From the NCBI GenBank assembly GCA_964013405.1, contig CAXGWI010000057.1, positions 1 through 20,157 on the forward strand: DNA of 20,157 nucleotides. Direction: 5' to 3'. This DNA comes from an uncultured Myxococcales bacterium. Lineage in GTDB: Bacteria > Myxococcota > UBA4151. Of the stretch, positions 1,367-20,157 are shown piece after piece. Each line of letters begins with the position of its first letter. Position 1 is the stretch's first letter. Below the pieces are notes generated by a model. The model searched no databases and was not told where the DNA came from. It saw only the letters and a list, made by a program, of their open reading frames with translations. The translations under genes were made by a program, and so were the position numbers.

Positions 1367-4207
1367 TCAATCCACGAAAGAGATGGGTGTCGGTGTCCCG
1401 ATTGCCGCAGTGCACGTGCCGGAACCCAGCTGCCCCGTATCATTGCGCCCCCAACACAAGACGCGACCATCGGTAGAACGGGCACAGGTATTGCCGGGGC
1501 CTGTGATGAGTGCGGCGATATTGTTAGGTAAGCCACCGACGCGAACGGGTTCCATGAAGTTGTGTCTGCCCTCAGCCCCTGGGATGCCCCCCCGGCTTCC
1601 AGTCCCTAATTGGCCTTCCGTATTGTTGCCCCAACACCAGACACTTCCCTGCCGGTTCAAGGCACAACTGTGTCGGTCACCAAGGGCGACATCGACGATG
1701 TTCTCCAGATGTCCCAGGTGTTGAGGCGTTCGGACACAGGGAACATCCCCCTCGCAGAGTTCCTCGTCCGAGGTGATACCCACCTGAGCGTGATCGTTCT
1801 TCCCCCAGCAAAAGAGGGCCCCGTTCGCATTCAGTGCACAACTGTGCCCCTGACCAACGGCCACATGCACCACGTAGCCAAGGTCGCCGACAACGTATCG
1901 GCGGGTCGCATCGCAGGCCGCAGCACAGTTTGGATCGCCCTCAGTCACATGATTGGTCCCTGTCTGACCGGCATCGTTGCGGCCCCAGCAGGTGAGGCGC
2001 CCGTTTTCTAGGATGACGCATATGGTGTCCGTACCGACGGTCACAAACGTTGCTGCTTGGTTCTCTGGCATGGAAAGGGGGTAGGGAGTGGCCCATCCAC
2101 CGATCCTCCCCATGGGCTGTCGGTAGCTGAGGAGACCATAACGTGAGGAGCCCCAGCATTTGAGGGTGTCACGATCGACGAGGCAGTAGTTGTGGCGGCC
2201 GACGCTCACGCCCTTGAGTTGCTGAATACTGTGTCGGCCAAAAGTCGGACCAATTTCTCCAATCCCATAAAGGGAAGGGACCGCCGTACAGGATCCGTCA
2301 CTTCGAATATGCTGTTGGGCGGGGTCACAATCGGGAAGCTCACACGGCCGAGGGACAAAGTTATGTCGAGGCTCATGGGCACACCACGTCCAGTCGACGG
2401 CCTCCACGATAGATCGCGCCGAAGTGACCGTCGAGTCGCCGACTCTACCCCAACAATATGCATGTCCATCCCGTCCATAGAGTGCGCAGATATTTGCATT
2501 ACCACCACCGCTCAAATCCAAGACTTCAGCGTCGGAACCGACAACTTCGATGGCGTCCGTGACCACATCGATCATCAGCCCATTTGCCTGCCCGGGCATT
2601 TGGCATTGGATGCGGTCAGCCTCGTGGACGGCGTCGACGTTCTCGCCGAGCACAAGAGTCTCGTTACTGCCCCAACAACGGACGCCTCCATCGACGACCG
2701 CACAACCGGTTCCCCCAGCCATCGCGAGGTGGCGGCGGGCCCGGCAGTCGCTCCGGCAGCGAAAATAGTTCGAGTCGGGTGCGTCGGGATCGCATTCCTC
2801 GTTTTCGTCTAAGAGCCCATTGCCACAGGGCCATTGGACCCAAAGGTCATAGGCTCCCTGTGACCCGGTCAGACCAGAGACAAGGACGTAGGCATGTTGC
2901 CCCGGTTGGAGATAGATCTCGACGCGGCAGTCTCGGCTGCCAACGTGCTGATCGTCCTGAAAACCCGCGAGGACCCGATCATCGGTATACAGCCGACAAA
3001 CCGGGTCGAGTAAGGGCAGGCCGTCGGCATGTCGCTTCGTCTGAAAGGCGTGTACACCGGCGACCTCAGCCGTAAAGACAAAGGCATCCACGTCATCGTT
3101 GGCGCCGATTTCGGCGTCATCGATAATGCGGTAGAGGCCCCGAAGACCGGAAACATCGGTCGGTACCGGCGTCGCAGTCTCGAAATCGTCTCCATGGTCA
3201 TCGAGGCGGCAGTCCACACTGCATTCGTCGCCGGGCACCAGGTTACCGTCATCGCAGGCTTCGCCCAGTTGAAGAATGCCGTCGCCGCAGGCTGGCGCCG
3301 TGCAATTGTTCGTGCAGTCATCATCATCGACCCCATTGCCGTCATCGCAGGCCTCTAAGGCTTCGTGCCGTAGTCCATCGCCACAGCGGGCAAGGCTACA
3401 GTCCGATAAGCAATCGTCGTTCTCGTTCCCATTGCCGTCGTCACAGGCTTCGACATCACGCCGAACATGTCCATCGCCGCAAGACGCGATCGCGCAGTTG
3501 TCTAAACAGTCATCGCTTTGATCTTCGTTGCCGTCGTCGCAGGCCTCCACACCTTCGTAGACGGCGCCGTCACCGCATGCGGCTGCCAAACAGTTTGGCA
3601 AGCAGCCGTCGGTCTCGATGCAGTTCCCGTCATCACAGGCTTCGCCTACTTGCAGGTAACCATCACCACAACTCGGTGCGCGACATGCCGGCGTACAGTT
3701 GTCATCGGACTCATCGTTGCCATCATCGCAGTGCTCATAGCCGGCCGTCGAACAGCGACCGGCGACACAGATCTCGCCCGTCGGACAGGCGGAAGGATCT
3801 GATCCACAACAGGGTATTTGGGATCCAGGGAAGAGGTCGCTCCGGCGTAAGCCGTCGCCACACCGGGCGACTTCGCAAGAATTCGTGCAGGCGTCTCGAT
3901 CATCGATGTTCCCGTCATCGCAGGCTTCGTAACCCTCCATTCCGGGCTCGAGATCAGCCCGTACGACACCATCCCCACAGCGAGCATCTCGACAACCTTG
4001 TGTACAGGCATCCCCATACCAGTTGTTGCCATCATCACATTCCTCACCTTCACCCAAGCGGCCGTCACCACAACGATTCATGAGGGGGGCTAGGGTGGGT
4101 AGGGGGTCCGGACAACCGCTGAATGGGAAAGCGACGAAGACGGTCAAAAGAACGCGCGGCAATGAGGAAGCAAATGGGGAGTTCGTCCCCTTAGGTTGGA
4201 TTGACAT
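1367..4207 (-). CDS. Exported protein or probable lipoprotein: 9 myxobacterial Cys-rich repeats (DUF4215/TIGR02232-like), a PPC-like domain and a C-terminal RCC1/BLIP-II-like beta-propeller
   Basis: Hydrophobic N-terminus ending FSG-C and a GGGGAG RBS. Eight CGDG..E.CDDGN..D.C...C repeats, then a DDHGDD...D.D.F.F...DP...GAYDL PPC-like domain (about 2830-3202), one more repeat, and repeated HSCAL...G.V.CWG.N..GQLG motifs. Confidence 0.88.
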   Translation of the reverse strand: MSIQPKGTNSPFASSLPRVLLTVFVAFPFSGCPDPLPTLAPLMNRCGDGRLGEGEECDDGNNWYGDACTQGCRDARCGDGVVRADLEPGMEGYEACDDGNIDDRDACTNSCEVARCGDGLRRSDLFPGSQIPCCGSDPSACPTGEICVAGRCSTAGYEHCDDGNDESDDNCTPACRAPSCGDGYLQVGEACDDGNCIETDGCLPNCLAAACGDGAVYEGVEACDDGNEDQSDDCLDNCAIASCGDGHVRRDVEACDDGNGNENDDCLSDCSLARCGDGLRHEALEACDDGNGVDDDDCTNNCTAPACGDGILQLGEACDDGNLVPGDECSVDCRLDDHGDDFETATPVPTDVSGLRGLYRIIDDAEIGANDDVDAFVFTAEVAGVHAFQTKRHADGLPLLDPVCRLYTDDRVLAGFQDDQHVGSRDCRVEIYLQPGQHAYVLVSGLTGSQGAYDLWVQWPCGNGLLDENEECDPDAPDSNYFRCRSDCRARRHLAMAGGTGCAVVDGGVRCWGSNETLVLGENVDAVHEADRIQCQMPGQANGLMIDVVTDAIEVVGSDAEVLDLSGGGNANICALYGRDGHAYCWGRVGDSTVTSARSIVEAVDWTWCAHEPRHNFVPRPCELPDCDPAQQHIRSDGSCTAVPSLYGIGEIGPTFGRHSIQQLKGVSVGRHNYCLVDRDTLKCWGSSRYGLLSYRQPMGRIGGWATPYPLSMPENQAATFVTVGTDTICVILENGRLTCWGRNDAGQTGTNHVTEGDPNCAAACDATRRYVVGDLGYVVHVAVGQGHSCALNANGALFCWGKNDHAQVGITSDEELCEGDVPCVRTPQHLGHLENIVDVALGDRHSCALNRQGSVWCWGNNTEGQLGTGSRGGIPGAEGRHNFMEPVRVGGLPNNIAALITGPGNTCARSTDGRVLCWGRNDTGQLGSGTCTAAIGTPTPISFVD

Positions 4208-6842: not shown

Positions 6843-7829
6843 ATGTCACGCTTCTCCCTCGTTTTCGCCGCGATTTTGCTTCTCCCCATGGATGCTCTTG
6901 CTGAGGGTGCGCGTCAGGACCAATGGCAGCAGGCGGCCGGTCCGACTTGGCTCCAGGCCCGCAAGCGCCGCAGGAAGCGAAAGCGAAAGAAGAAGCCAGC
7001 GCCCGCAAAGAAGGCGGCTCCGGCCAAGGTCGAGTCCCCCAAGCCCAAGCCCGAGCCAAGCCCCCCCGCTGCGAAGCCAGAGCCAGCAGTGGCACCGGAA
7101 GCCGAGGGTGATCCCGCGAAACGCTTTGGTGAAAAGCCTGGGGTCGCCATCATGGAGATCGCTGCGATGCATGGCGTCGAGCCCAGCTTGGCTGAACTGC
7201 TCGGGGGAAATCTCAACACGGCCTTTCAATCGACCGGACGCTTCGATGGCGTCATCTCGAGCACAGATGTTCAAGCGATGTTGAGCCATGAGCAACAGGC
7301 GCAGGCCCTTGGCTGTGATGATACCTCCTGTATTGCTGCCCTTGGCGGTGCCTTAGGCGTGCCGCTTTTGGTGGTGCCCAGTTTGGGTCGGGCCGGTGGG
7401 CGCTTTATCCTCAACGTCAAAGTCATCGCCGTTGAAGAAGCGGTGGCCGTTGCCCGTCTCACCCGCCTCTATACGAACGAAGCCAGTCTGGTCTCCGAGA
7501 TCGATGAGGTCGGTACCGGCCTGGCAGCGATGGTGTTCGGGGAAAAGAGTTCCCTACCCACGGTTCCTCCCGTGGTCGAAGAGAAAGCCCAATCGAAACT
7601 CCCCCAGATGGTGGGCGCGGGCTTAGCTGTTTCGGGGACCATCGCCTTCGTCAGTAGCTACTTCGTCGCCAGTGCCCGGCAGACAGAATTTGATAACACA
7701 GCCCAAAAGGATGCGGCGGCGGTCGATGGCCTCCTGGGCTCCCAAACCATGGTCAGCACCCTTTGGGGGGGCGGGCTGCTCGTAGGCCTTTCCGGGGCCG
7801 GCCTCTTCACTTGGGGGATGTTGCAATGA
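6843..7829 (+). CDS. Exported hypothetical protein: signal peptide, polybasic tract, Pro/Ala/Lys linker, CsgG/TolB-N-like alpha/beta domain and two C-terminal hydrophobic segments
   Basis: MSRFSLVFAAILLLPMDALA signal; RKRRRKRKRKKK; PKPKPEP linker; LGCDDTSCIAALGGALGV...SLGRAGGRFILNVKVI; Gly-rich hydrophobic C-terminal helices. The stop overlaps the next start (ATGA, 7826-7829). Confidence 0.75.
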   Translation: MSRFSLVFAAILLLPMDALAEGARQDQWQQAAGPTWLQARKRRRKRKRKKKPAPAKKAAPAKVESPKPKPEPSPPAAKPEPAVAPEAEGDPAKRFGEKPGVAIMEIAAMHGVEPSLAELLGGNLNTAFQSTGRFDGVISSTDVQAMLSHEQQAQALGCDDTSCIAALGGALGVPLLVVPSLGRAGGRFILNVKVIAVEEAVAVARLTRLYTNEASLVSEIDEVGTGLAAMVFGEKSSLPTVPPVVEEKAQSKLPQMVGAGLAVSGTIAFVSSYFVASARQTEFDNTAQKDAAAVDGLLGSQTMVSTLWGGGLLVGLSGAGLFTWGMLQ

Positions 7830-10800
7830 GATGGATGATTCTATGCCTCTCAGGCCTGCTGATGGCCTGTCCGCCCAACCTCGACGCCAAGGGCTACACG
7901 CCCTGCGCCTCCGACGCAGAGTGCGCCGCCGGCCCCGACGGATTGGCCCGGATTTGTACGGAAGGGGTCTGTACACCGAGTCGCTGTGGCGATGGGGTCG
8001 TCTCGGCCGATGAAGAATGCGACGATACCAACGATGTGAACACCGACGGCTGCACGAACGGTTGCCGGCTGCCTCGCTGCGGCGATGGCATCACAACCAT
8101 CGATGAGAACCTCCCCGCGGACGAACGAGAGCAGTGCGATGACGGTAATTCGGCCAATGATGACGGCTGCACCAGCTCCTGCCGCCGAGCCCGTTGTGGC
8201 GACGGTACCGTACGTCAGGACCTCGACCCGATCGATGACCTCTACGAGGAGTGTGATGACGGCAATGACATCGACACCGATGGCTGTAATCGATGCCAGG
8301 ATGCTTTCTGCGGCGATGGCGCGATGCGGGCCGATCTTCAGGCCGGCGACGAGAATTACGAGGAGTGTGACGACGGTGACAACATCAATACGGATGGTTG
8401 CACCAGCACTTGCGAGTTGCCCAGGTGCGGTGATGGCTACCTGCGAACTGACCTGTCGTCGAACCAAGAGGGCTATGAAGAATGTGACGACGGTAACTTG
8501 GACGATGGCGACAGTTGCAGCAGCAGTTGTGAGCTGCCCGGCTGCGGCGACGGTGTCACTCAGGAGGGCGAAGAATGTGATGACGGCAATGACATCGACT
8601 CCGATGCATGCACGACTGCGTGCAAGAGTGCCACCTGCGGGGACAACGTTGTCCAACCTGGCAACGACGAGGAATGCGACGACGCCAATGCCGTGCAAAC
8701 AGACGGATGCCTGAACAATTGTCACTTCGCCCGCTGCGGCGATGGCTTTCGCCGTACAGATCGGCCGGCCCACGATGATAACTTCGAAGAATGTGACGAC
8801 GGCCCTGAGAACAACAACGATGCCTGTACCAATCTCTGTGAGTTAGCCCGCTGCGGCGATGGCATCAACCGGGCAGACCTGGCTCCGGGGCAGGTGGGTT
8901 ACGAGGCTTGCGACGATGGCAACGTGGAAAACGACGATGCCTGTCTTAACAATTGCCAGGAAGCAGTGTGTAACGATGGCGTTATTCGACGGGACATTTT
9001 GCCCGGCCAAGACGGCTTTGAGGCATGTGACGACCTGAATTTCGTCGATACCGATGGTTGTACCAATAGCTGCAAAGTGGCCCGATGTGGCGACGATATC
9101 GTTCGGCGTGATTTAGGGGAAAACGACCCCAATTTTGAAGAATGCGAAGACGGAAATAACAACAACCAAGACGCCTGCACAAACCGCTGTCGTTCCGCTC
9201 GCTGTGGTGACGGGATCGTGCGGGGTGACCGGGAGCAGGGCCAACTGGGCTTTGAGGCCTGCGATGACGGCGAGGACAACAACAACGCCCTCGCTGATGC
9301 CTGCCGAACGAATTGTAGGCCTGCGGCCTGTGGGGACCGTGTCGTCGATGCGGGCGAGGACTGTGATGATGGTGATGACGACGACCGAGACGCTTGTCTT
9401 TCCTGCGTTGAAGCCCGCTGCGGTGATGGGGTTCTGCGCTTGGATCTCGGGCCCAATGACGACGCCTTTGAGCAATGCGATGATGGCAACCGTATCGACA
9501 ATGATGACTGTAATAACAATTGTGTTGCCCCCGCCTGTGGCGATGGACGACGGCTCGGGAACGAAGAATGTGATGACGGAAATCTGGTCAACGAAGACGC
9601 CTGTACCGCTGAATGTGTCTTGGCCCGTTGCGGCGACGGGATTTTACGGGAGGACCTCGTCAATCCTGCGGCCGAAGGCTTCGAGGCCTGTGATGAGGGT
9701 GCGAACAATGGGGACATCGCCGACACCTGTCGGGCAAACTGCCTGCTTCCCCGCTGCGGTGATGGCATCATCGATGCGGCGCGCGAAGAGGGTTGCGATC
9801 CGGGCCCAGATGGCGACTGGTCCGACTGTAGCCGGCTCTCGTGCAAGCCGCCCCGGCGACGATTGGCTGTCTCTGAGCGCTATGTCTGTGTTTGGCCTGA
9901 AGAGAGTGAAACGCTCCAATGCTGGGGTCTCGATGACCCGCTCTACCGTTGGCATGAGCGGGGTGAGCGCGCCCAATCGGTCTGCTTCAATGCTTGGCCC
10001 CCAGTGAATTGCTACGTGAATGAGACCATCGAGCTCCGCTATGATGAGGGCATCGAGGGCTCGAACCTGCCCCGGGCGAATGGCTGGCGCAGCCTCCAAG
10101 CCGTGGATGAGGGCCTCTGTATGAACACGGAGTACGGGGTCTGGTGCATGGGTCAATTGGCTCGACTTAATAATCAAGGGCGGCTGGAGAAGACGTCTAT
10201 CCTGCCGAATCTGTGGGGTGGGTGGAATCCTCAAGGAATGGGTAACCAGATGCATGGAGGGGATAATTCGAATCGTGTCCTTGCCTACCACAGCGCCGAC
10301 AGTCACGGCTGCCACATCAGTCGGTGGAACCAAGCGGACGAGAATGAGCCGGAAGACTGGTCGCCTGCCGAACTTCGCTGCTGGGGGACGAATGACAAAG
10401 GCCAGTTAGGCAACGGCACAACCGATGACGCGGAGGGAGAGGTGGAGGTCATGACCTTGGATGGGGCCCAGCCTGTCGATGTCTTCACGAGTACCGACAC
10501 CAGCTGTGCGCTGACCGAGGGCGGAGGACTCTGGTGTTGGGGCAATCGGGCATCGGGCGTGGCACCGGCGGGCCAAGATTGTGGCAACAACGAGGGCAAC
10601 TGCGAGCCGACCCGTGTAGCTGGTCTCACGGATGTTCGTCGTGTGTGGCTGGGGGACTCCAACATCTGTGTCGTGACCGGCGATGAAGCCCGCCTCCATT
10701 GTTGGGGGATGGCGGACAATGGCCAATTGGGGCTGGCACCAGAACATGAGGATCTCGAGAGGTGTAGCCCCAGGAATGACGAGTTCGAGTATGCTTGCCT

Positions 10801-11155
10801 TAGGAGGCCACGGGATCTCGGCATGGTTGGCATCGAAGATCTCGCGTTGGGTGACGGCTTCATCTGTCGTTTGATCGAAGGGCGTGTCCGTTGTTGGGGC
10901 GCCGACGGTTACGGAGAACTGGGTATCGGGCTTGAGGACCTGCAAGAGGATCCATGGTTCCATCTCGTTCCAGACAACGATGTCGACGTCGACTTGCCTG
11001 GGACCGTCAGTGAGATCAGTACCTGGTACGGGACGGTCTGCGCACTCCTAGACGATGGTCGGGTCTATTGCTGGGGTTCCAATGGCTACGGGCGTGTTGG
11101 GCGACTGGGGGCAAACGAGTACGGCTCTCCTCAATTTGTCGAGATTCCTCGCTGA
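7826..11155 (+). CDS. Lipoprotein with 17 myxobacterial Cys-rich repeats and a C-terminal RCC1/BLIP-II-like beta-propeller
   Basis: Start moved from 7763 to ATG 7826, giving MRWMILCLSGLLMA-C (lipobox) and coupling to the upstream stop. 17 C(G/N)D(G/N/D/R) repeats, then CWG.N.KGQLG, CWGMADNGQLG and CWGSNGYGRVG RCC1-like motifs. Confidence 0.9.
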   Translation: MRWMILCLSGLLMACPPNLDAKGYTPCASDAECAAGPDGLARICTEGVCTPSRCGDGVVSADEECDDTNDVNTDGCTNGCRLPRCGDGITTIDENLPADEREQCDDGNSANDDGCTSSCRRARCGDGTVRQDLDPIDDLYEECDDGNDIDTDGCNRCQDAFCGDGAMRADLQAGDENYEECDDGDNINTDGCTSTCELPRCGDGYLRTDLSSNQEGYEECDDGNLDDGDSCSSSCELPGCGDGVTQEGEECDDGNDIDSDACTTACKSATCGDNVVQPGNDEECDDANAVQTDGCLNNCHFARCGDGFRRTDRPAHDDNFEECDDGPENNNDACTNLCELARCGDGINRADLAPGQVGYEACDDGNVENDDACLNNCQEAVCNDGVIRRDILPGQDGFEACDDLNFVDTDGCTNSCKVARCGDDIVRRDLGENDPNFEECEDGNNNNQDACTNRCRSARCGDGIVRGDREQGQLGFEACDDGEDNNNALADACRTNCRPAACGDRVVDAGEDCDDGDDDDRDACLSCVEARCGDGVLRLDLGPNDDAFEQCDDGNRIDNDDCNNNCVAPACGDGRRLGNEECDDGNLVNEDACTAECVLARCGDGILREDLVNPAAEGFEACDEGANNGDIADTCRANCLLPRCGDGIIDAAREEGCDPGPDGDWSDCSRLSCKPPRRRLAVSERYVCVWPEESETLQCWGLDDPLYRWHERGERAQSVCFNAWPPVNCYVNETIELRYDEGIEGSNLPRANGWRSLQAVDEGLCMNTEYGVWCMGQLARLNNQGRLEKTSILPNLWGGWNPQGMGNQMHGGDNSNRVLAYHSADSHGCHISRWNQADENEPEDWSPAELRCWGTNDKGQLGNGTTDDAEGEVEVMTLDGAQPVDVFTSTDTSCALTEGGGLWCWGNRASGVAPAGQDCGNNEGNCEPTRVAGLTDVRRVWLGDSNICVVTGDEARLHCWGMADNGQLGLAPEHEDLERCSPRNDEFEYACLRRPRDLGMVGIEDLALGDGFICRLIEGRVRCWGADGYGELGIGLEDLQEDPWFHLVPDNDVDVDLPGTVSEISTWYGTVCALLDDGRVYCWGSNGYGRVGRLGANEYGSPQFVEIPR

Positions 11156-11370: not shown

Positions 11371-12687
11371 ATGTCCCAATCTCAGCAGGCGACACGGATG
11401 GGCCTTGCCCATCAACATATGCCCCAAGGGGTTGCCGAGAATTACCGATACTGGGGGGAGGAGCAGACGGTCTTTGTCCAGTCTGCGAAAGGCTGTGTGC
11501 TGACCGACTGCGATGGCAAGGAGTTCGTTGATTTTCGTCTCGGCTATGGGCCCATCATCCTTGGCTATCGAGATGAAAGGGTCGACGAGGCGGTGGCTAA
11601 AGCGATGCGGGAGCGGGGAATTTTAACGGGTTTTTCCTCGCCGCTCGATGTCCCGGTGATCGAAGCGATTAAGGCCTTGTGTCCCCAGATCGAGAAGATG
11701 CGTTTTGCAAACTCGGGTACCGAAGCGGTGATGGGTGCGCTCCGGACTGCGCGGGGATTCACCGGGCGTGACCGGGTGGTGGTGGTCGAAGGGGGCTTTC
11801 ACGGCCTCTACGATGAGATGATGTGGAAGAGCGATATGGAAGGGTGGTCTGGAGGCCCAGGCACGGTTCCAGATATTGTCCCCTTTGGCGCGGGGATTCC
11901 GAAGGGCAGCCGCGAGCTTGTGGACTTCCTGTCGCTGAATGATTTCGATGAACTGGAAGCCCTTTTCAGCCGCGGCGGGGACACGATCGCCGCCGTCCTC
12001 CTCGAGCCGATCATGGGCAATTGCGGGAGCATCGCTGCCACCCCTGAGTGGCTCCAAGCCCTTCGTCAGGCCTGTAGTCAAGCCGGCGCCATGCTGGTGA
12101 TCGATGAAGTGAAGACCGGCTTCCGGGTGGCCCGGGGCGGGGCGCAGGAATTGTATGGCATCACGGCCGATCTCACCACCTATGCCAAGGCCATGGGGAA
12201 CGGCTACCCGGTGGCTTGTTTTGGTGGCAGAGCGGACGTCATGGACGTCATCGGTGCGGGTGGCGGCGTTGTCCATGGGGGGACCTATACGGGCAACCTG
12301 GTCGGACTGAGTGCCAGCCTCGCCACCCTGGAAATCCTCAAAGAGACAGATGCGTTAGAGGTCGCCGCGACCATGGGCGCGGCGATCCAAGCGAGTCTCG
12401 GGCGCGTCTTTGAGGGGGCGGGGGTCGCCCATCGTTTCACCGGCCCGGACGCGATGTTCGGTGTTCACTTCACAGCCGATGAAGTCCCAAGCAATTATCG
12501 GGATTGGAAACGGACCGATAGTCCACTCTACACAGCCTTTGCCTGGAACCTCATCGAGCGAGGTGTGATGCTGGAACCGGACTCCCGTGAGCCCTGGTTT
12601 CTGTGTGAAGCCCATCGGGCTCTGGATCTGAGCTGGTTCGAGGCCGTAGCGACGGAAGCCATGGAAGTGGCCCTTACCAAGGCATAG
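11371..12687 (+). CDS. Class III PLP-dependent aminotransferase, glutamate-1-semialdehyde aminomutase (HemL)-like paralog
   Basis: D.DGKEFVDF..GYGPIILG, RFANSGTEAVM.A.R.ARGFTGRD, EGGFHG, EPIMGN, IDEVKTGFR, TYAKAMGNGYP (PLP lysine), HGGTY.GN. Purine-rich RBS. An in-frame TAG at 11308 excludes an earlier start. Confidence 0.9.
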   Translation: MSQSQQATRMGLAHQHMPQGVAENYRYWGEEQTVFVQSAKGCVLTDCDGKEFVDFRLGYGPIILGYRDERVDEAVAKAMRERGILTGFSSPLDVPVIEAIKALCPQIEKMRFANSGTEAVMGALRTARGFTGRDRVVVVEGGFHGLYDEMMWKSDMEGWSGGPGTVPDIVPFGAGIPKGSRELVDFLSLNDFDELEALFSRGGDTIAAVLLEPIMGNCGSIAATPEWLQALRQACSQAGAMLVIDEVKTGFRVARGGAQELYGITADLTTYAKAMGNGYPVACFGGRADVMDVIGAGGGVVHGGTYTGNLVGLSASLATLEILKETDALEVAATMGAAIQASLGRVFEGAGVAHRFTGPDAMFGVHFTADEVPSNYRDWKRTDSPLYTAFAWNLIERGVMLEPDSREPWFLCEAHRALDLSWFEAVATEAMEVALTKA

Positions 12688-12744
12688 ACTGCACGCTGCG
12701 GGTGCGCCCCCCATCACAATCTGGCCCACGTCGCCAAGACTCGG

Positions 12745-13962
12745 ATGTTTGACCGAGAAACCACCAGAACGTTCGGTCGATACCTTTTTCGAATTGCAGA
12801 AGAAGGGATTCGCAGCATGGAACCGATCCGTTTCTCAAACCAGCCAGCCAGTGGAGCGCGCCCCACAGACCATTGGAACCACCCCTCGGCCATCGCCAGG
12901 GACAGGGGCCTCGCGCTCAACGTCCTACGGCACCCAAGCGAAACCAATCGCCCCTTCGCCATCAGTGGCTTCGAAAGCCAGCGCGGTAGTGAACACTTTC
13001 TGGGTCGCAGTCTCGCTTTGTCGAGCCGCCCAAGCTTCGGGCGAGTCTCGCCACAGACGCGGGCCATTCTGGCGGCCACACAGCCCTGGAAGGTGAACGA
13101 CAAGCCCGTCACCAGTGGCTTCGCCGCAAGTTACGACTGGCAGCCCAGGCACCGCCGACGTTGGACGGTATCCAGCGACGGGCGGGAGCCCCCGGAAGAC
13201 CTGGCAATGAAAGCCAGCGCCACCTTGTTTAACGTGGGTCGAGAAGGGCGCATGGCCTGGCGGGAACTTCAAGGAGAGACGAAGATCGCCGGGGGATTTG
13301 AGGCCAGCGGGCGAGCCACCGCCGGCGGGCTCTACGGGACCACTGGGTTGCGGGCCGACCTCAACCTCATGAGCGGCGAAGCGGAGTTGAAAGCCACCGC
13401 CGGGGCCCGGGCCGAGCTCGCCGCGCTGGAGGGCCGCCTCGCGAGGGCCATCGGGAGCAAGTCAACGGGGCTCACCGCATCAATCAATGGCTCCGCTGCC
13501 GTCTTAGCAGAGGGCACAGGGGAGGCTGCGTTGATCCTTGAACCCCGCCGAGGGACCGCCAAAATTGGGCTCGGTGGTGACGTCTTCGCCGGTGCCAAAG
13601 CAACGGCCAGTTTTCGGACCGAAGGGAGGGCCCTTGGTGAGCGTTTCGGCTCAGCCAGTCTCGGGGTCGAGGGCTACGCCGGTGCGTGCGCCAAGGCGAA
13701 AGCGGAGTTAGGCTTCGATGAGGGCTGTCTCAAGGCCTCGGCCGAGTTGGGTGTCGGACTCGGACTTGGGGCCGGCCTGAAGGTCGAAGTGGACGTGGAC
13801 GTTGCTGGTGTCGGCCGGGCCGGGCTGAAAGCGAGCAAAGCGGCCCACGGGCTGATCGAAGCCGCCGGTGAATCCCTCGGTGAGGCGGCTTTTTGGAGTT
13901 ACTATCACTCGAGCCGAGAGCTCAGCCGAGCCTTTGATCGGGTTGTCGACTGGATCGACTAA
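12745..13962 (+). CDS. Hypothetical protein with a Gly/Ala-rich alternating beta-strand C-terminal half; the true start may be ATG 12817
   Basis: 405-aa ORF filling the gap between two genes. Repeats such as GGDVFAGAKATAS, GVEGYAGACAKAKAELG and ASAELGVGLGLGAGLKVEVDVD. GAAGGGA RBS before ATG 12817. Confidence 0.7.
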   Translation: MFDRETTRTFGRYLFRIAEEGIRSMEPIRFSNQPASGARPTDHWNHPSAIARDRGLALNVLRHPSETNRPFAISGFESQRGSEHFLGRSLALSSRPSFGRVSPQTRAILAATQPWKVNDKPVTSGFAASYDWQPRHRRRWTVSSDGREPPEDLAMKASATLFNVGREGRMAWRELQGETKIAGGFEASGRATAGGLYGTTGLRADLNLMSGEAELKATAGARAELAALEGRLARAIGSKSTGLTASINGSAAVLAEGTGEAALILEPRRGTAKIGLGGDVFAGAKATASFRTEGRALGERFGSASLGVEGYAGACAKAKAELGFDEGCLKASAELGVGLGLGAGLKVEVDVDVAGVGRAGLKASKAAHGLIEAAGESLGEAAFWSYYHSSRELSRAFDRVVDWID

Positions 13963-15355: not shown

Positions 15356-15799
15356 CTAGCTGGGGCTGGCGCCCACGTTGAACGAGGAGTGGTGGAGGGT
15401 GATCAGAACCCGTCCATCACGCTTATGGTAGCTGAAGCTGTAGTCAGCGAGTGTCTCGCTGCCGTCGGGCCCACGGAAGACATAATGCCCCATGTCCTGC
15501 CCCGAACGTCCACCGCTCTCCAGCATCGGGCCTCGAGCGCTCTGGAACTCGACGGCAACGAAGCCATTGTGCAGAAAGCCGTGGTCTTTGGGATAGTTTG
15601 GATCACCACCCACGAAGTAAGACCTCGTCCCGCTTTCATCGGTGCGAATCTCCGCAGCCATGGTGGGTTTGAACAAGAGGCAGTCGAAGTCATAAAGCGC
15701 GGCGAGGGTTTCCACGTCCTGGCGAACCACGGCGGCGCCCCAGGCTGCCTGGGCGGCTTCGATTTCTGCGGCGGTCAAAAGGCTAAATTCGTTTGTCAT
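15356..15799 (-). CDS. COG4337-like (iota-class) carbonic anhydrase, NTF2/SnoaL-like fold
   Basis: AQAAWG, LY, LFKPT.A, SYFVGG.P.YP.D.GF, MG.YVF, DYSFSY and C-terminal LHHSS. Start moved from 15910 to ATG 15799, 10 bp after the alkA stop. Confidence 0.78.
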   Translation of the reverse strand: MTNEFSLLTAAEIEAAQAAWGAAVVRQDVETLAALYDFDCLLFKPTMAAEIRTDESGTRSYFVGGDPNYPKDHGFLHNGFVAVEFQSARGPMLESGGRSGQDMGHYVFRGPDGSETLADYSFSYHKRDGRVLITLHHSSFNVGASPS

Positions 15800-15809
15800 G
15801 GTCGGGCTT

Positions 15810-16430
15810 TCAATACGCAACGGGAATCGGGTCAAGACTTCTCCACAAAAACCACGTGGCGACGCTCCGCCATGGCCGCCAAACCTCGGCGATCGATTCG
15901 ATCTCTGCATCGGCTAAACGCTGACCATCGGCATAGTGGCGCTCGACAGCTCGCCGCAGGCCAATGTCCTTAAGGGACAAAATGTCGGGCCTGCATAAGG
16001 TAAACATCATGAACATCTGGGCGGTCCATTCGCCCACACCTTTGTAGGTCGTGAGTTGTTTCAGGACCTCCTGGTCGCTGAGTTCAGCAAGGCGAGTCGG
16101 GTCGCAAAGCTGGGGTGCTTCAGCAATTCCTCGGACATAGCGGACTTTCTGGCGGCTCAAGCCGCAGGCGCGCAGGGCGTCTTCATCGGCATCAAGTAGG
16201 GCAGAGGGCGTGATTTGACCGACGCATTCGAGGGTCCGGTCCCAGACCGCTTGGGCTGCTTTGACCGAGATCTGCTGCCCAACGATGGCCCGAATCAAGG
16301 TCTCGAAGCCTTGGCCTTTCGGCTCGAGGCGCTCACCCGGGAACTGGCTGATCAAGCGAGCCATCACGGGATCGGCCGCAGCCAAATCCTCCGTGGCCTG
16401 GGCCCACTGAGGAAACTCCGACAAGGTCAT
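15810..16430 (-). CDS. alkA: DNA-3-methyladenine glycosylase II (AlkA / HhH-GPD family)
   Basis: FETLIRAIVGQQISVKAA, LRACGLSRQK, HhH motif KGVGEWTAQMF, RPDI...DIGL, WRPWRSVATWFLWRSL. Start moved from 16541 to ATG 16430. Confidence 0.93.
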   Translation of the reverse strand: MTLSEFPQWAQATEDLAAADPVMARLISQFPGERLEPKGQGFETLIRAIVGQQISVKAAQAVWDRTLECVGQITPSALLDADEDALRACGLSRQKVRYVRGIAEAPQLCDPTRLAELSDQEVLKQLTTYKGVGEWTAQMFMMFTLCRPDILSLKDIGLRRAVERHYADGQRLADAEIESIAEVWRPWRSVATWFLWRSLDPIPVAY

Positions 16431-16443
16431 GCTCAAGGAAAAC

Positions 16444-17340
16444 TCAGGACTCAGGAACAGGCTCAGGAACCGCCTTCTTCGAGAGGGCCAGTCCGTCGAG
16501 ATGCATTTCCATATCGATGCGATAGGGCTCGGTGGTGGCATCGGGGCGCCGCAAGCCCCGCAAACAGTCGAGGATCTCTTTTTCGGTCACCTCGAAGGTG
16601 CCGGAAGCGCCCCGGATGCCGTGAGCGTAGAATTTTCCGTCCCCTAAATAGATCACGTTCTCACCACCAAAGGCCGAGTTTGCCTCCGAGGCGTCGGGGT
16701 TTTTGTAGTAGTAATGACTGCCCGGCATGAGCTTGCTGGGTCGGTGGGCAAGGCGTTTCACTTCGGTGAAGTCACTGTCTTCCACCTGCCAGCGGAAGAA
16801 CTTCAGGTTGCGAGGCTCGGAGAACAAGCGGTCGAAGGCTTCATCACCGATGTGGTCCAATATCGCTTTATGATAGATCACCATCATCGCAGTGGCACAC
16901 TCAAAAGAGTAGGCTTTACCGTTGGAGAAGATGTCACGAAGGGCTGTCGAGGGCTTGCCAATCTCACCATCTGGCAGCCACTTTCGCACTTGCATCTTGC
17001 CGCCATAGCCCATGGTCCAGAGTTCCTTGTTGACCCGGTCCTCGCCGCTCCTGCCAGCGAAGGCGACACCGCTGTTCGCCAAATCTTTCCCGGCTCGAAC
17101 GACCGCATGGCGAAAGGCGAGATCCTCTGTCCGACGAGGCCCCAAACGTTCAACGCTGGCCCCTTCCGTTGGAACAAAGCGGTCGTCCGCATCGATGCGG
17201 GACCGAAGACCCTGGTCGCCATCCTCAAGACTCGCACCGGGGCCGTATAGTTCTTTCGCAATATCCTGGGCGGCCTCTAGATCCCGCAAGGGCGGGGGAG
17301 TAGGACTCCGACGAAAGATAGAATCGAGCCAACTGGGCAT
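16444..17340 (-). CDS. tgl: Protein-glutamine gamma-glutamyltransferase (Bacillus Tgl-type transglutaminase homolog; unrelated to the Myxococcus pilotin also called Tgl)
   Basis: KPSTALRDIFSNGKAYSFECATAMMVIYHKA...IGDEAFDRLF...YYKNPD...GENVIYLGDGKFYAHGI...EILDCLRGLRR parallels Bacillus Tgl motifs YAFECATA, YFKNP, GENVI.LG...Y.AHG. Strong RBS AGGGGAGAAGGA. Confidence 0.85.
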   Translation of the reverse strand: MPSWLDSIFRRSPTPPPLRDLEAAQDIAKELYGPGASLEDGDQGLRSRIDADDRFVPTEGASVERLGPRRTEDLAFRHAVVRAGKDLANSGVAFAGRSGEDRVNKELWTMGYGGKMQVRKWLPDGEIGKPSTALRDIFSNGKAYSFECATAMMVIYHKAILDHIGDEAFDRLFSEPRNLKFFRWQVEDSDFTEVKRLAHRPSKLMPGSHYYYKNPDASEANSAFGGENVIYLGDGKFYAHGIRGASGTFEVTEKEILDCLRGLRRPDATTEPYRIDMEMHLDGLALSKKAVPEPVPES

Positions 17341-17391
17341 GAGTAGCGTTCCTTCTCCCCTTATGGGCTAACGACTCACGGCGGACAACCG

Positions 17392-20001
17392 TTAGTCATC
17401 GCCCCAACTGATCTCCAGGCGCCCGTGACCGGCCCGTTGGCCTGAGAGCGTGCCCCCGAGAAGCACACGCTGAGGATCCCACCAGGAAGAGCCGCCGCCA
17501 CCGCCGGCGTTGTTCGCGCCGCCGCCGCCGCCGTAGTAGCCGCCGCCACCGCCGCCACCGTCGTTACCATCACCCATGCCGCCGCCGCCCAGAACACCAG
17601 GGCTTCCAGCGCTACACGTATGAGCGTTGTAGTGACCGCCTGCTCGGCCTCCAGCCTGCTGCGTTCCGCCCCCGGACCCGATGCCATTGTATTCGTTCCC
17701 GCCCTCGCCTGCGAGGCCTCCGCCCGCGCCGCCATCATCCCCGTCGCCGCTGCCGCCACCACCGCCGGCCACCAAGATCCGGTCATTCAAGCCAGCGTCG
17801 CCCCGCCGGAGATCACTGGCGCCCCCCCCGGTACCGGCGAGCGCACCTGCATTGCCACAGCACTGGGAACCCGTGGGACCACCGCCATTGTAGCCGCCGC
17901 TTTGACCACAGCCGACACGGCTTTGCCCTTGGCCCCCAATAAAAATCCTCAGTTGCTCGCCGGGGGTCACGGAGAGTTGGCCTGTGACGTAGCCACCTAA
18001 ACCGCCAGCTCCTTGATTGGCACCTCCCTGGGCACCCCAGGCCTCGACCGTGACGGAGGTCAGGCCCAATGGAACGGTCCAGACTTGCTCACCGCCCGTG
18101 TACTCGAAGGCGACGGAGCCAGGATCCGGCGCATTCCGCTCACAACTGTTGCTGCAGGCATCGTCATCGATCTGATTGAGATCATCGCAAGCCTCACCGT
18201 CTTGAACGACGCCATCGCCACAGAAGGAGACCGCACCGGCCACCGACTGACATTCCCCATCGCAAACGATGCACTCCCGCAGGCCGTAGTCACAGGCCTC
18301 CAAGTCCTGATTGCCATCATCGCAGGTCTCAGGACCGTTCTGAATCCCATCTCCACAATAACTGACTGCACCGGCGACCGGTTGGCATCGGTCATCACAG
18401 ACCTCGCAGGCCTGCACGCCATAGGCGCAAGCTTCGAGGAGATCGTTGCCATCATCACAGCCTTCACCGCCCTGGATCACGTTGTCGCCGCAGTAGTGAA
18501 CCGCCCCCGCAACGGCCTCGCAACTGGGGTTACAGACCGTGCAAGCCCGTTCTCCGTAAGCGCAGACCTCGAGGACTTCGTTGCCATCGTCACAGGTCTC
18601 CGGGCCATTCTCGAGCCCATCGCCGCAATAGGCGACCGCGCCGTCCTCGATTTGGCATGTCTCGCTACACACCTCGCAAGAGAGTAGACCATAGTCGCAG
18701 ACTTCGGTCTCCGCATTGCCATCATCACAGGCTTCACCGACTTGAACCTGCCCGTCACCGCAAATGGCGATGCGGCATTGGTTATCACAACCATCCAATG
18801 GATCGTCGTTGCCGTCGTCGCATTCTTCCTGGCCGGCCCAGACCACACCATCACCACAGCTTGGGCGCTGACAATTGTTGCGACAGAAGTCACCATCGTC
18901 ATCATTGCCATCATCGCAGGCTTCGTAGCCCTCTTCACCGGGCTCTAGATCACCTCTGAGCGTGGCGTCACCGCAGCGAGCGCCAACACAGTGGTTGCGG
19001 CAAGCGTCGAGGTCATCGTCGTTGCCGTCGTCGCAGGCTTCACCGGCATCCACCCGGCCGTTGCCACAGCGCTCCTGTTGGCAGGCAGCATCACAACCAT
19101 CGCCATCCTCAGCGTTACCGTCGTCACAGGCTTCGAAACCATCCTCATCGGCCGCCAGGTCGATCCGGGCGAAACCATCGCCGCAGCGGGCCGGTTCACA
19201 GGCATTCGTGCAAGCATCCCGGTTCTCGGCATTACCATCGTCACAGGCTTCTTCATCGGCCCACAGCACACCGTCGCCGCAGGCAGCGATGGCACAGTTG
19301 TTAAGGCATTGGTCTTCCTCGTTGTCGTTGCCATCGTCACAGCGTTCCCCCGATTGGATGACCCCATCGCCACAGGTTGCCGGCTGACAGCCGTTGCAAT
19401 CGTCGGTGGGATTCTCATTGCCGTCGTCACAGCCTTCGCCAGGCCCGAGAATCCCATCACCACAGCGAGCTTCTTCGCAGTTGTTTAAACAACTGTCCTC
19501 GTCTGTATCGTTGCCATCGTCACAGGCCTCATAGCCCGCATCACCGATGTCGAGGTCGCCGCGCACGATACCATCGCCGCAAGTGGCTTCCTGGCAATTG
19601 GCCAGACAGCCATCTTCATTCAGGTCATTGCCGTCATCGCAGGCCTCGAACTTACGATCGCCTTCCGAGAGGTCGAGGCGGAGCACTCCGTCGCCGCACT
19701 CGGCTTCCAGGCAATTGCTAAGACAACCATCACCGGCTTCCCCGTTGCCATCATCGCAGGCTTCATAGCCCGACTGGTCCGGACTCAGGTCGTCCCGGGT
19801 GACGCCATCGCCGCAACGAGCAAGCTCGCAGGCATTGGTGCAACTGTCCGTGTTGGTCTCATTGCCATCGTCGCAACCCTCCCCGGTCTCAAGCTTCCCG
19901 TTGCCGCAGCTGGCCTCGGTCTCTCGGACCACCACTTGTTCCCCCGCGCAGGCAACGAGAAAACCGAGCATAGAAAGGCAAAGAAAGATCTGACGGGCCA
20001 T
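17392..20001 (-). CDS. Lipoprotein with 16 Cys-rich repeats and a C-terminal glycine-rich (ALK/LTK-like Gly_rich) domain
   Basis: Start moved from 20130 to ATG 20001: GGAG RBS and MARQIFLCLSMLGFLVA-C lipobox. CGDG/CDDGN repeats, then FEYTGG...TVP.G..SVTVEAWGAQGG...GGYNGGG...GGGASDLR...RILVAGGGGG...GGGGGGYYGGGGG. Confidence 0.9.
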   Translation of the reverse strand: MARQIFLCLSMLGFLVACAGEQVVVRETEASCGNGKLETGEGCDDGNETNTDSCTNACELARCGDGVTRDDLSPDQSGYEACDDGNGEAGDGCLSNCLEAECGDGVLRLDLSEGDRKFEACDDGNDLNEDGCLANCQEATCGDGIVRGDLDIGDAGYEACDDGNDTDEDSCLNNCEEARCGDGILGPGEGCDDGNENPTDDCNGCQPATCGDGVIQSGERCDDGNDNEEDQCLNNCAIAACGDGVLWADEEACDDGNAENRDACTNACEPARCGDGFARIDLAADEDGFEACDDGNAEDGDGCDAACQQERCGNGRVDAGEACDDGNDDDLDACRNHCVGARCGDATLRGDLEPGEEGYEACDDGNDDDGDFCRNNCQRPSCGDGVVWAGQEECDDGNDDPLDGCDNQCRIAICGDGQVQVGEACDDGNAETEVCDYGLLSCEVCSETCQIEDGAVAYCGDGLENGPETCDDGNEVLEVCAYGERACTVCNPSCEAVAGAVHYCGDNVIQGGEGCDDGNDLLEACAYGVQACEVCDDRCQPVAGAVSYCGDGIQNGPETCDDGNQDLEACDYGLRECIVCDGECQSVAGAVSFCGDGVVQDGEACDDLNQIDDDACSNSCERNAPDPGSVAFEYTGGEQVWTVPLGLTSVTVEAWGAQGGANQGAGGLGGYVTGQLSVTPGEQLRIFIGGQGQSRVGCGQSGGYNGGGPTGSQCCGNAGALAGTGGGASDLRRGDAGLNDRILVAGGGGGSGDGDDGGAGGGLAGEGGNEYNGIGSGGGTQQAGGRAGGHYNAHTCSAGSPGVLGGGGMGDGNDGGGGGGGYYGGGGGANNAGGGGGSSWWDPQRVLLGGTLSGQRAGHGRLEISWGDD
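18190..18729 (-). repeat. Four tandem 135-nt (45-aa) six-cysteine repeat units inside the lipoprotein CDS
   Basis: CDDGN...E.C.YG...C.VC...C....GAV.(Y/F)CGD occurs four times with an exact 45-aa period. Confidence 0.85.
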
Positions 20002-20128
20002 GGTGAACGCTCCAGTTGGCACGGGACAATAGCGTTCCCAGAAGGCGGGCGAAAGCCCCCCGAGATCAAGGGTCGAAGCCCCCAACAGAGTTGACAAGGG
20101 GGCGGCGGGCGTTCCAACCGAGAACACC

Positions 20129-20157
20129 ATGCTGTTAACCCTTATCTTTATTTTCCT
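20129..20157 (+). CDS. Possible start of a divergent gene with a signal-peptide-like N-terminus, truncated by the window edge
   Basis: ATG CTG TTA ACC CTT ATC TTT ATT TTC = MLLTLIFIF. TTGACA at 20092-20097 upstream. Only 9 codons are visible. Confidence 0.25.

Follow-up and report, generated by a model that had tools for sequence, protein, structure and literature searches.

Background

The closest described relatives of the gene reported here are the tgl genes of the Firmicutes. The Pfam family PF20085 (TGL) is given as a spore-coat enzyme (PMC10318531), and Tgl is described as a sporulation-specific gene of spore-formers that is patchily spread within the Firmicutes (PMC3533761). The catalytic unit of the Bacillus subtilis enzyme is described as a dyad, in which Cys116 works with Glu187 or Glu115, and His200 as a substrate-interaction residue (PMC6490927). 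We found no literature on non-Firmicute Tgl in our searches, outside which most subscription papers lay; some homologs are already annotated automatically as protein-glutamine gamma-glutamyltransferase.

Cysteine-dependent chemistry on glutamine side chains is also directed against other cells. Among the effectors of type III and type IV secretion systems (T3SS and T4SS), Cif, OspI and MavC are deamidases or transglutaminases. CNF1, DNT and VopC are named as such effectors (PMC11297309). The protein described below is predicted to act on glutamine side chains of another cell in a like manner, but these effectors have eukaryotic targets and it has no sequence match or significant fold match to any of them in the sequence and structure searches described below. 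Two bacterial systems are closer to the present case, namely EAT14, a toxin associated with extracellular contractile injection systems (eCIS) that combines DUF4157, LysM and PF09017 (PMC11297309), and the needle-less T3SS* of Myxococcus xanthus, which works with a Tad-like Kil pilus, is required for prey lysis, and has effectors that are merely postulated (PMC12075869).

Results and discussion

The gene and its product

The window (the whole stretch of DNA analysed, 20,157 nucleotides) is the entire contig C57 of genome G000, which is 3.9 Mb in size, 94% complete and 0.7% contaminated. It carries a gene, single-copy in this genome and starting with ATG, whose product (P0001) an earlier note had proposed to be a homolog of Tgl. 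The features of the gene are as follows.

16444..17340 (-): Tgl-family protein-glutamine gamma-glutamyltransferase gene, P0001, 298 aa (Pfam, PDB sequence matches, AlphaFold model)
17349..17362 (-): purine-rich tract resembling a ribosome-binding site, about 9-22 nt 5' of the ATG (sequence)
17293..17340 (-): aa 1-16, N-terminus modelled with low confidence (pLDDT 54-60), consisting of a short amphipathic helix (4-8) and then a Pro-rich linker
17125..17292 (-): aa 17-72, N-terminal subdomain of a helix and a beta-hairpin, present in non-Firmicute forms and unalignable in Firmicute Tgl
17182..17223 (-): aa 40-53, degenerate EF-hand-like loop (D40, D50, D53), a putative Ca2+ site, of canonical DxDxDG type in long homologs
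16483..17124 (-): aa 73-286, TGL catalytic core of NlpC/P60-type fold (Pfam, Foldseek, VIA-align)
17059..17061 (-): Phe94, B. subtilis Phe69 (4p8i alignment; PMC6490927)
16897..16902 (-): Glu147-Cys148, B. subtilis Glu115-Cys116 (4p8i alignment; roles from PMC6490927)
16789..16791 (-): Trp184, B. subtilis Trp149, on the Gln-substrate side (4p8i alignment; PMC6490927)
16708..16710 (-): Tyr211, B. subtilis Tyr171 (4p8i alignment; PMC6490927)
16657..16662 (-): Glu227-Asn228, B. subtilis Glu187-Asn188 (4p8i alignment; roles from PMC6490927)
16621..16623 (-): His240, B. subtilis His200, at the back tunnel entrance (4p8i alignment; PMC6490927)

The proposed homology is borne out by profile, sequence and fold. 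P0001 scores 157.9 bits (E 3.6e-46) against PF20085, for which the gathering threshold is 23.7 bits, and its sequence matches in the PDB are 7c9j (E 2e-27) and 4p8i (E 4e-22), the Tgl enzymes of Geobacillus stearothermophilus and B. subtilis, to which it is 30-35% identical with a fold rmsd of 1.8-2.4 Å. In searches with the AF2 model (pTM 0.89, mean pLDDT 90.2), Foldseek matched 4p8i at E 1.2e-17 and 1.8 Å (1.8-2.2 Å over 4p8i and 7c9j), and VIA-align matched 7c9j with Z 27.4 and rmsd 2.4 over 207 aligned residues, against Z 7.8 for the runner-up; wall hydrolases of the NlpC/P60 and CHAP types come next in fold after Tgl (Z 6-7.8). By Pfam, P0001 is a single-domain protein, with neither a carrier domain nor a peptidoglycan-binding domain.

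The motifs to which the note had drawn attention are intact at the positions given there: FECATA at residues 146-151 (Cys148), GENVI at 226-230 (Glu227) and YAHG at 238-241 (His240). Its assignment of catalysis to the Cys, Glu and His of these motifs stands for the first two but not for the His, which is described in Tgl as a substrate-interaction residue (PMC6490927); the equivalences were drawn by sequence alignment rather than by superposing side chains. The tunnel-entrance residues F94, W184, Y211 and N228 are identical to B. subtilis F69, W149, Y171 and N188; B. subtilis W184 is replaced conservatively by Phe224, the variable R185 by Gly225, and D168 by Ser208. Against the NCBIfam model of the spore-coat Tgl equivalog (NF002869/PRK03187) the protein scores 148.3 bits, below the cut-off of 307. 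P0001 belongs to PF20085 and is Tgl-like in fold and residues, but on two defining counts, this score and the nature of its host, it does not qualify as the spore-coat equivalog.

In place of the Firmicute N-terminus, P0001 has the amphipathic segment and the acidic-loop subdomain. A DxDxDG loop of the EF-hand type has 12 residues, with ligands at positions 1, 3, 5, 9 and 12. The loop of P0001 retains D40, D50 and D53 but carries an insertion relative to this canonical form; D40 and D53 are invariant across alignment A1, and both key loop acids occur in 146 of 168 non-Firmicute cores as compared with 0 of 88 Firmicute-type cores, in which the Firmicute sequences are unalignable over this region. 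The first 16 residues are a candidate export or membrane-targeting segment. Their hydrophobic moment lies at the 98.5th percentile of host N-termini and the amphipathic character is kept in the closest homologs, so that the helix could have a role in export or in membrane anchoring. By a simple hydropathy measure the best 11-residue window at the N-terminus reaches only -0.04; there is therefore no Sec- or lipoprotein-like signal, in agreement with the note.

Host genome and integrity of the contig

The host is a diderm member of the Myxococcota, and a search of its genome for SpoIVA found nothing; this agrees with its description in the note as a myxobacteria-like diderm that does not form endospores and sets it apart from the hosts of spore-coat Tgl. 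LpxC is present in G000, SpoIVA gave no match in this 94%-complete genome (the B. subtilis control was positive), and the closest relatives of P0001 that carry a taxon label (71-73% identity) lie on contigs of Myxococcota bacteria. Chimerism of the contig, a possibility that the note had raised, is excluded, because composition is genome-typical and independent and syntenic contigs agree. The GC content of the window is 0.605 (genome mean 0.607), its tetranucleotide profile ranks 95 of 135, and GC3 of the gene is 0.67 as compared with 0.68. An independent contig (L131) is 100% identical over window positions 16330-17734, spanning the gene into both neighbors, and two contigs of about 75% identity (L132 and L133) keep the gene order around it. 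Comparison with two of these contigs gives a dN/dS of about 0.02, at synonymous sites that are nearly saturated; the gene is vertically inherited and strongly constrained by purifying selection. Orthologs occur in two of five other genomes of the host's class, and there are orthologs in the same family. None was found in G001 (same genus, 93% complete), G004 (85%) or G005 (59%), nor was TGL found in 32 genomes of g78, the genus of G112.

Distribution and architecture of the family

The finding is wider than one odd gene, in that P0001 is one member of a large, apparently undescribed non-Firmicute branch of the Tgl family. Sampling of the host's phylum turned up PF20085 in 44 of 401 genomes; these belong to 13 of 35 families, and in 32 of them the match is strong (E<=1e-18). 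PF20085 is present in 9 of 251 genomes of a Bacillota sample and in 3 of 301 genomes of the phylum of a Haliangium-titled genome, each of these two counts including the centre genome, which was chosen for having the gene. The domain is commoner in the host-phylum sample than in the Bacillota sample, its architecture is far more varied, and its distribution is patchy. A profile search gave 1796 TGL clusters at 50% identity, of which the best 150 were viewed and 67 were scanned with Pfam. Look-alike clusters in the atlas are commonest in Chlamydiota, with TGL in 29-38% of members, an observation that is no more than a lead. A phage search gave no TGL match and a plasmid search two matching Firmicute records; one contig from a viral collection (L156) carries a Tgl-like gene of 33% identity.

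Catalytic and tunnel residues are conserved in both Firmicute and non-Firmicute cores, and most non-Firmicute cores keep the residues corresponding to F69, W149, Y171, N188 and H200 of the Tgl tunnel. Across the family the TGL domain is placed C-terminally, behind interchangeable N-terminal modules. PG_binding_1 precedes it in four homologs (P0086, P0095, P0097 and P0104); eCIS_core/DUF4157 carriers are joined to it in P0149, L111, L115, L163 and P0242-P0244, and likewise, with a TGL match, in L116; and it ends giant Ig-domain proteins of about 1,700 residues (L108 and L109). The TGL domains of the DUF4157 and Ig-domain proteins are for the most part more distant ones. Ten of 128 non-Firmicute proteins begin with a hydrophobic, signal-like segment; among these are P0061, P0062 and P0168 of the same clade as P0001. 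Long forms show weak EF-hand or dockerin Pfam matches and additional EF-hand-like motifs N-terminally, and the model of one long form has its first 36 residues disordered ahead of the same Tgl core. Among the matches listed, searches for longer forms yielded none for A2 and three DUF4157 fusions for A3, which says little about fusions to Rhs or VgrG. The distant TGL domains linked to DUF4157 (about 20% identity, without the acidic loop) occupy the same slot as the enzyme domain of EAT14 (PMC11297309). PF09017, as described there, is a different family, of Streptomyces type with Cys-Asp-His, and P0001 itself has no DUF4157. The idea that EAT14 is a TGL protein, raised by its Asp-His spacing, was ruled out, the domain being PF09017.

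Two copy-number observations were made in passing. Genome G091 has three giant proteins (L108-L110) in which a Transglut_core domain and Ig domains are joined to a variable TGL-like domain at the C-terminus, and G106 has tandem TGL paralogs (L119-L120), with four copies in a 2.8-Mb genome, one of which contains internal stops.

A survey of the neighborhoods of homologs, which the note had suggested, revealed no shared neighborhood and no recurring partner: no conserved partner gene recurred among the 32 and 52 loci compared, and no chaperone or immunity gene was a recurring neighbor of TGL among them. Ser/Thr-kinase-like neighbors at 7 of 32 loci were rejected as partners, their Pfam architectures being different and such kinases being abundant in these genomes.

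Phylogeny

Of 332 profile matches among the fetched sequences, 286 cover the core, and 256 distinct cores entered a FastTree tree; two IQ-TREE LG+G4 runs and one mixture-model run complete the set. In all four trees, Firmicute Tgl and the short clade of the window protein each fall on one side of a well-supported branch. P0001 lies outside the Firmicute clade and is therefore not a recent Firmicute transfer, which supports, of the two possibilities that the note had posed, a Myxococcota clade. What we call the Firmicute-type clade (88 cores) follows from the FastTree topology and takes in the loci titled Bacillota, one titled Dehalococcoidia and many proteins without a name; for the Dehalococcoidia-titled contig (L037), transfer and mis-binning are both possible.

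Under LG+G4, the window clade and Firmicute Tgl are sisters inside the long forms (UFBoot 97; 96/85). The mixture model did not recover this sisterhood and placed both within a weak group (83), and an AU test of non-Firmicute monophyly, a group that was named after inspection of the tree, gave a borderline p of 0.043 against it. The root (midpoint or long-branch outgroups) is unsure and the sample favors non-Firmicute sequences; read in this light, the topology suggests that the spore Tgl of Firmicutes is derived and nested among non-Firmicute forms, an origin that would fit the patchy spread of tgl within the Firmicutes (PMC3533761).

Export routes in the host

Genome G000 encodes a flagellum, with eight flagellin-domain matches in its flagellar set, and a separate non-flagellar T3SS, of which SctV, SctN and SctR score above NCBIfam cut-offs and SctJ, L, Q, S, T and U are best-matching and below cut-off. 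These non-flagellar genes match a single T3SS cluster of about 24 kb in G112, which by gene content and by the description in PMC12075869 appears to be a needle-less T3SS* of the M. xanthus type. In G000 itself the genes are scattered over at least five places (contigs C1, C9, C48, C174 and C179), with an orphan sctV. A Tad-like CpaB locus is present, and VipB of the type VI secretion system was not found in the host genome. Judged from its genes, the host has an export apparatus matching that of M. xanthus as well as a Tad-like locus; the accessible part of PMC12075869 names no T3SS* substrate, and we found no published link between T3SS* and TGL in the literature searched.

SctV (criterion E<=1e-200; tallies include the unpublished genome G183) occurs in 37 of the 44 genomes that have TGL and in 188 of the 357 that do not (Fisher p 4e-5), and at the family level TGL occurs in 12 of the 22 families that have SctV, as compared with 1 of the 13 that lack it (Fisher p 0.01), kin being non-independent in both comparisons. 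SctR was above cut-off in six of the seven SctV-negative TGL carriers, in a check covering these misses and two other genomes but not the TGL-negative set, so that all 32 genomes with strong TGL matches have a T3SS core gene. A genome of family f14 has an SctR-like match just below the cut-off, and 'SctV-negative' therefore does not equal T3SS-free. TGL is missing from all 31 SctV genomes of the phylum of G407. Carriers without SctV include G091, with its giant proteins, one of which has a signal-like start, G407 (a hydrophobic N-terminus), G557 (a double DUF4157) and G504 (a LysM-like stretch, judged by eye). The association may track only lineage or lifestyle.

The N-terminus of P0001 has no hydrophobic signal and a low pLDDT; a test of N-terminal composition could not tell non-Firmicute proteins from Firmicute ones. 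An excess of Pro at residue 2 (32% of 128, against 4%) was dropped as an export signal after it vanished on removal of near-copies, when Pro, Thr or Ser occupied this position in 12 of 42 proteins, as compared with 26% of the host proteome. N-terminal content of Ser, Thr, Pro and Asn failed its control (5.7 for cytoplasmic Firmicute Tgl, 5.2 for non-Firmicute proteins), and HMMs of the N-terminal modules matched no other host protein.

Three other host proteins were noted. A signal-less 374-residue protein (G000 C98:7847-8968 (-), the same as L159:1848-2969) has a low-complexity start, PG_binding_1 and, by eye, a Cys/His amidase-like tail; it shares the layout of the long TGL forms and is a candidate T3SS-exported wall hydrolase. 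Two signal-less proteins without a Pfam match have similar starts, one (C179:5274-6038 (-)) encoded near sctU and a TPR chaperone-like gene, and the other (C36:21667-25230 (+)) a repetitive, beta-rich protein of 1188 residues.

Proposed function and alternatives

Evidence at the level of the family favors export and an antagonistic role for P0001, and that the enzyme acts outside the producer's cytoplasm is probable, taking together the three readings that would place it there. The reading that we put first, with confidence just short of even, is that P0001 is an effector without a signal peptide, delivered by the needle-less T3SS, that would act on prey or competitors by cross-linking or deamidating their proteins. 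We prefer it because TGL sits behind swappable delivery modules across the family; because the host has a non-flagellar T3SS and a Tad-like locus; because SctV co-occurs with TGL and SctV-less carriers have other modules; because the spread is patchy and the neighborhood not shared; and because EAT14 offers a precedent in which DUF4157 is joined to another transglutaminase family. By analogy with Tgl, Cys148, with Glu227 or Glu147 assisting, would attack a Gln carboxamide, and the resulting thioester would be resolved by a Lys amine (cross-linking) or by water (deamidation). Signal-less TGL forms would be exported via the T3SS, as the architectures of their relatives suggest, and, more speculatively, the acidic N-terminal loop might serve as a Ca2+ switch that keeps the enzyme off inside the producer.

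Several observations run counter to the effector reading. P0001 has no carrier and no conserved chaperone or immunity neighbor; the N-terminal composition test failed its control; 188 SctV genomes are without TGL; and the TGL domains joined to DUF4157 are distant ones without the acidic loop. The amphipathic helix could anchor the protein to a membrane of the producer itself, and the dN/dS of about 0.02 and the intact tunnel residues are just as compatible with a constructive cross-linker.

Such a constructive enzyme, exported and cross-linking the producer's own surface proteins (coat, pili or matrix) as Tgl does on the spore coat, is unlikely on our reckoning, though a serious contender. It would account for the retention of catalytic and tunnel residues as in Tgl and for the strength of purifying selection, and the Sec-like signals of P0061, P0062 and P0168 in the same clade would deliver those proteins first to their own periplasm. 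It is weakened by the outward-pointing eCIS carriers within the family, by the absence of the gene from G001 and the 32 g78 genomes as searched, and by the lack of a substrate: no clear Gly/Pro-rich protein with Gln/Lys repeats was seen among the 3143 host proteins scanned, and no conserved substrate gene lies nearby.

We regard as distinctly improbable that P0001 stays in the cytoplasm, where its amphipathic helix would hold it at the inner membrane, and there deamidates, polyaminates or cross-links the cell's own proteins. B. subtilis Tgl is likewise made in the cytoplasm without a signal, and the missing signal peptide of P0001 and the conservation of the amphipathic N-terminus among its closest homologs agree with such a role. 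The signal peptides (also within the same clade), peptidoglycan-binding domains and eCIS fusions of the family speak against it, as does the patchy distribution, and the EF-hand-like acidic loops would suit the high Ca2+ outside the cytoplasm.

Slightly less credit still goes to a cell-wall hydrolase or transamidase, in which the NlpC/P60 core would attack peptidoglycan at its gamma-glutamyl bonds. The folds that rank next after Tgl are those of NlpC/P60 and CHAP wall hydrolases (Z 6-7.8), four homologs carry PG_binding_1, the host has the signal-less protein with PG_binding_1 and a Cys/His tail, and wall hydrolysis would fit the lytic role of T3SS*; the wide gap in Z (27.4 versus 7.8), the conservation of Tgl tunnel residues in most non-Firmicute cores and the missing peptidoglycan-binding domain of P0001 tell against it. 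A binning artefact, a recent Firmicute transfer or a decaying gene, which the description of Tgl as a spore-former gene (PMC3533761) and the failure to find orthologs in G001, G004 and G005 might bring to mind, can be dismissed as highly improbable in view of the genome-typical GC, tetranucleotide profile and GC3, the identical independent contig, the syntenic contigs of 75% identity, the same-family orthologs, the dN/dS of about 0.02 and the position outside the Firmicute clade in four trees.

Should the effector reading prove right, P0001 would be a testable cargo for the myxobacterial needle-less T3SS, the effectors of which are only postulated (PMC12075869), and antibacterial cross-linking or deamidation of proteins would be a chemistry of predation. 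A broader proposal, which we hold to be doubtful, casts TGL as a polymorphic domain of secreted effectors that is old in predatory Myxococcota, is under the control of Ca2+ and is sent out through the needle-less T3SS, eCIS and Sec, and the Bacillus spore Tgl as a domesticated offshoot of the branch to which this gene belongs. Were it true, the first class of T3SS* cargo would be named and the view of Tgl as an ancient invention of sporulation reversed. Even if the enzyme is constructive, the family would be a source of small transglutaminases that are possibly switched by Ca2+, and the story of spore-coat evolution would change.

Other genes in the window

The gene downstream of P0001 encodes an HhH-GPD glycosylase. 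A SnoaL-fold protein (15356-15799 (-)) matches the metal-independent carbonic anhydrase model NF047901 weakly (65 bits, cut-off 350), and its gene is also found near the TGL gene in L016 and L132. At 11371-13962 (+), a class-III aminotransferase with GntE as its top NCBIfam match (424 bits, cut-off 525) is followed by an ORF of 405 residues without a Pfam or NCBIfam match. Three large, Cys-rich myxobacterial repeat proteins (1367-4207 (-), 7763-11155 (+) and 17392-20130 (-)) are encoded on this 20-kb contig, and their C-terminal ends are RCC1-like propellers in two and an ALK/LTK glycine-rich domain in one.
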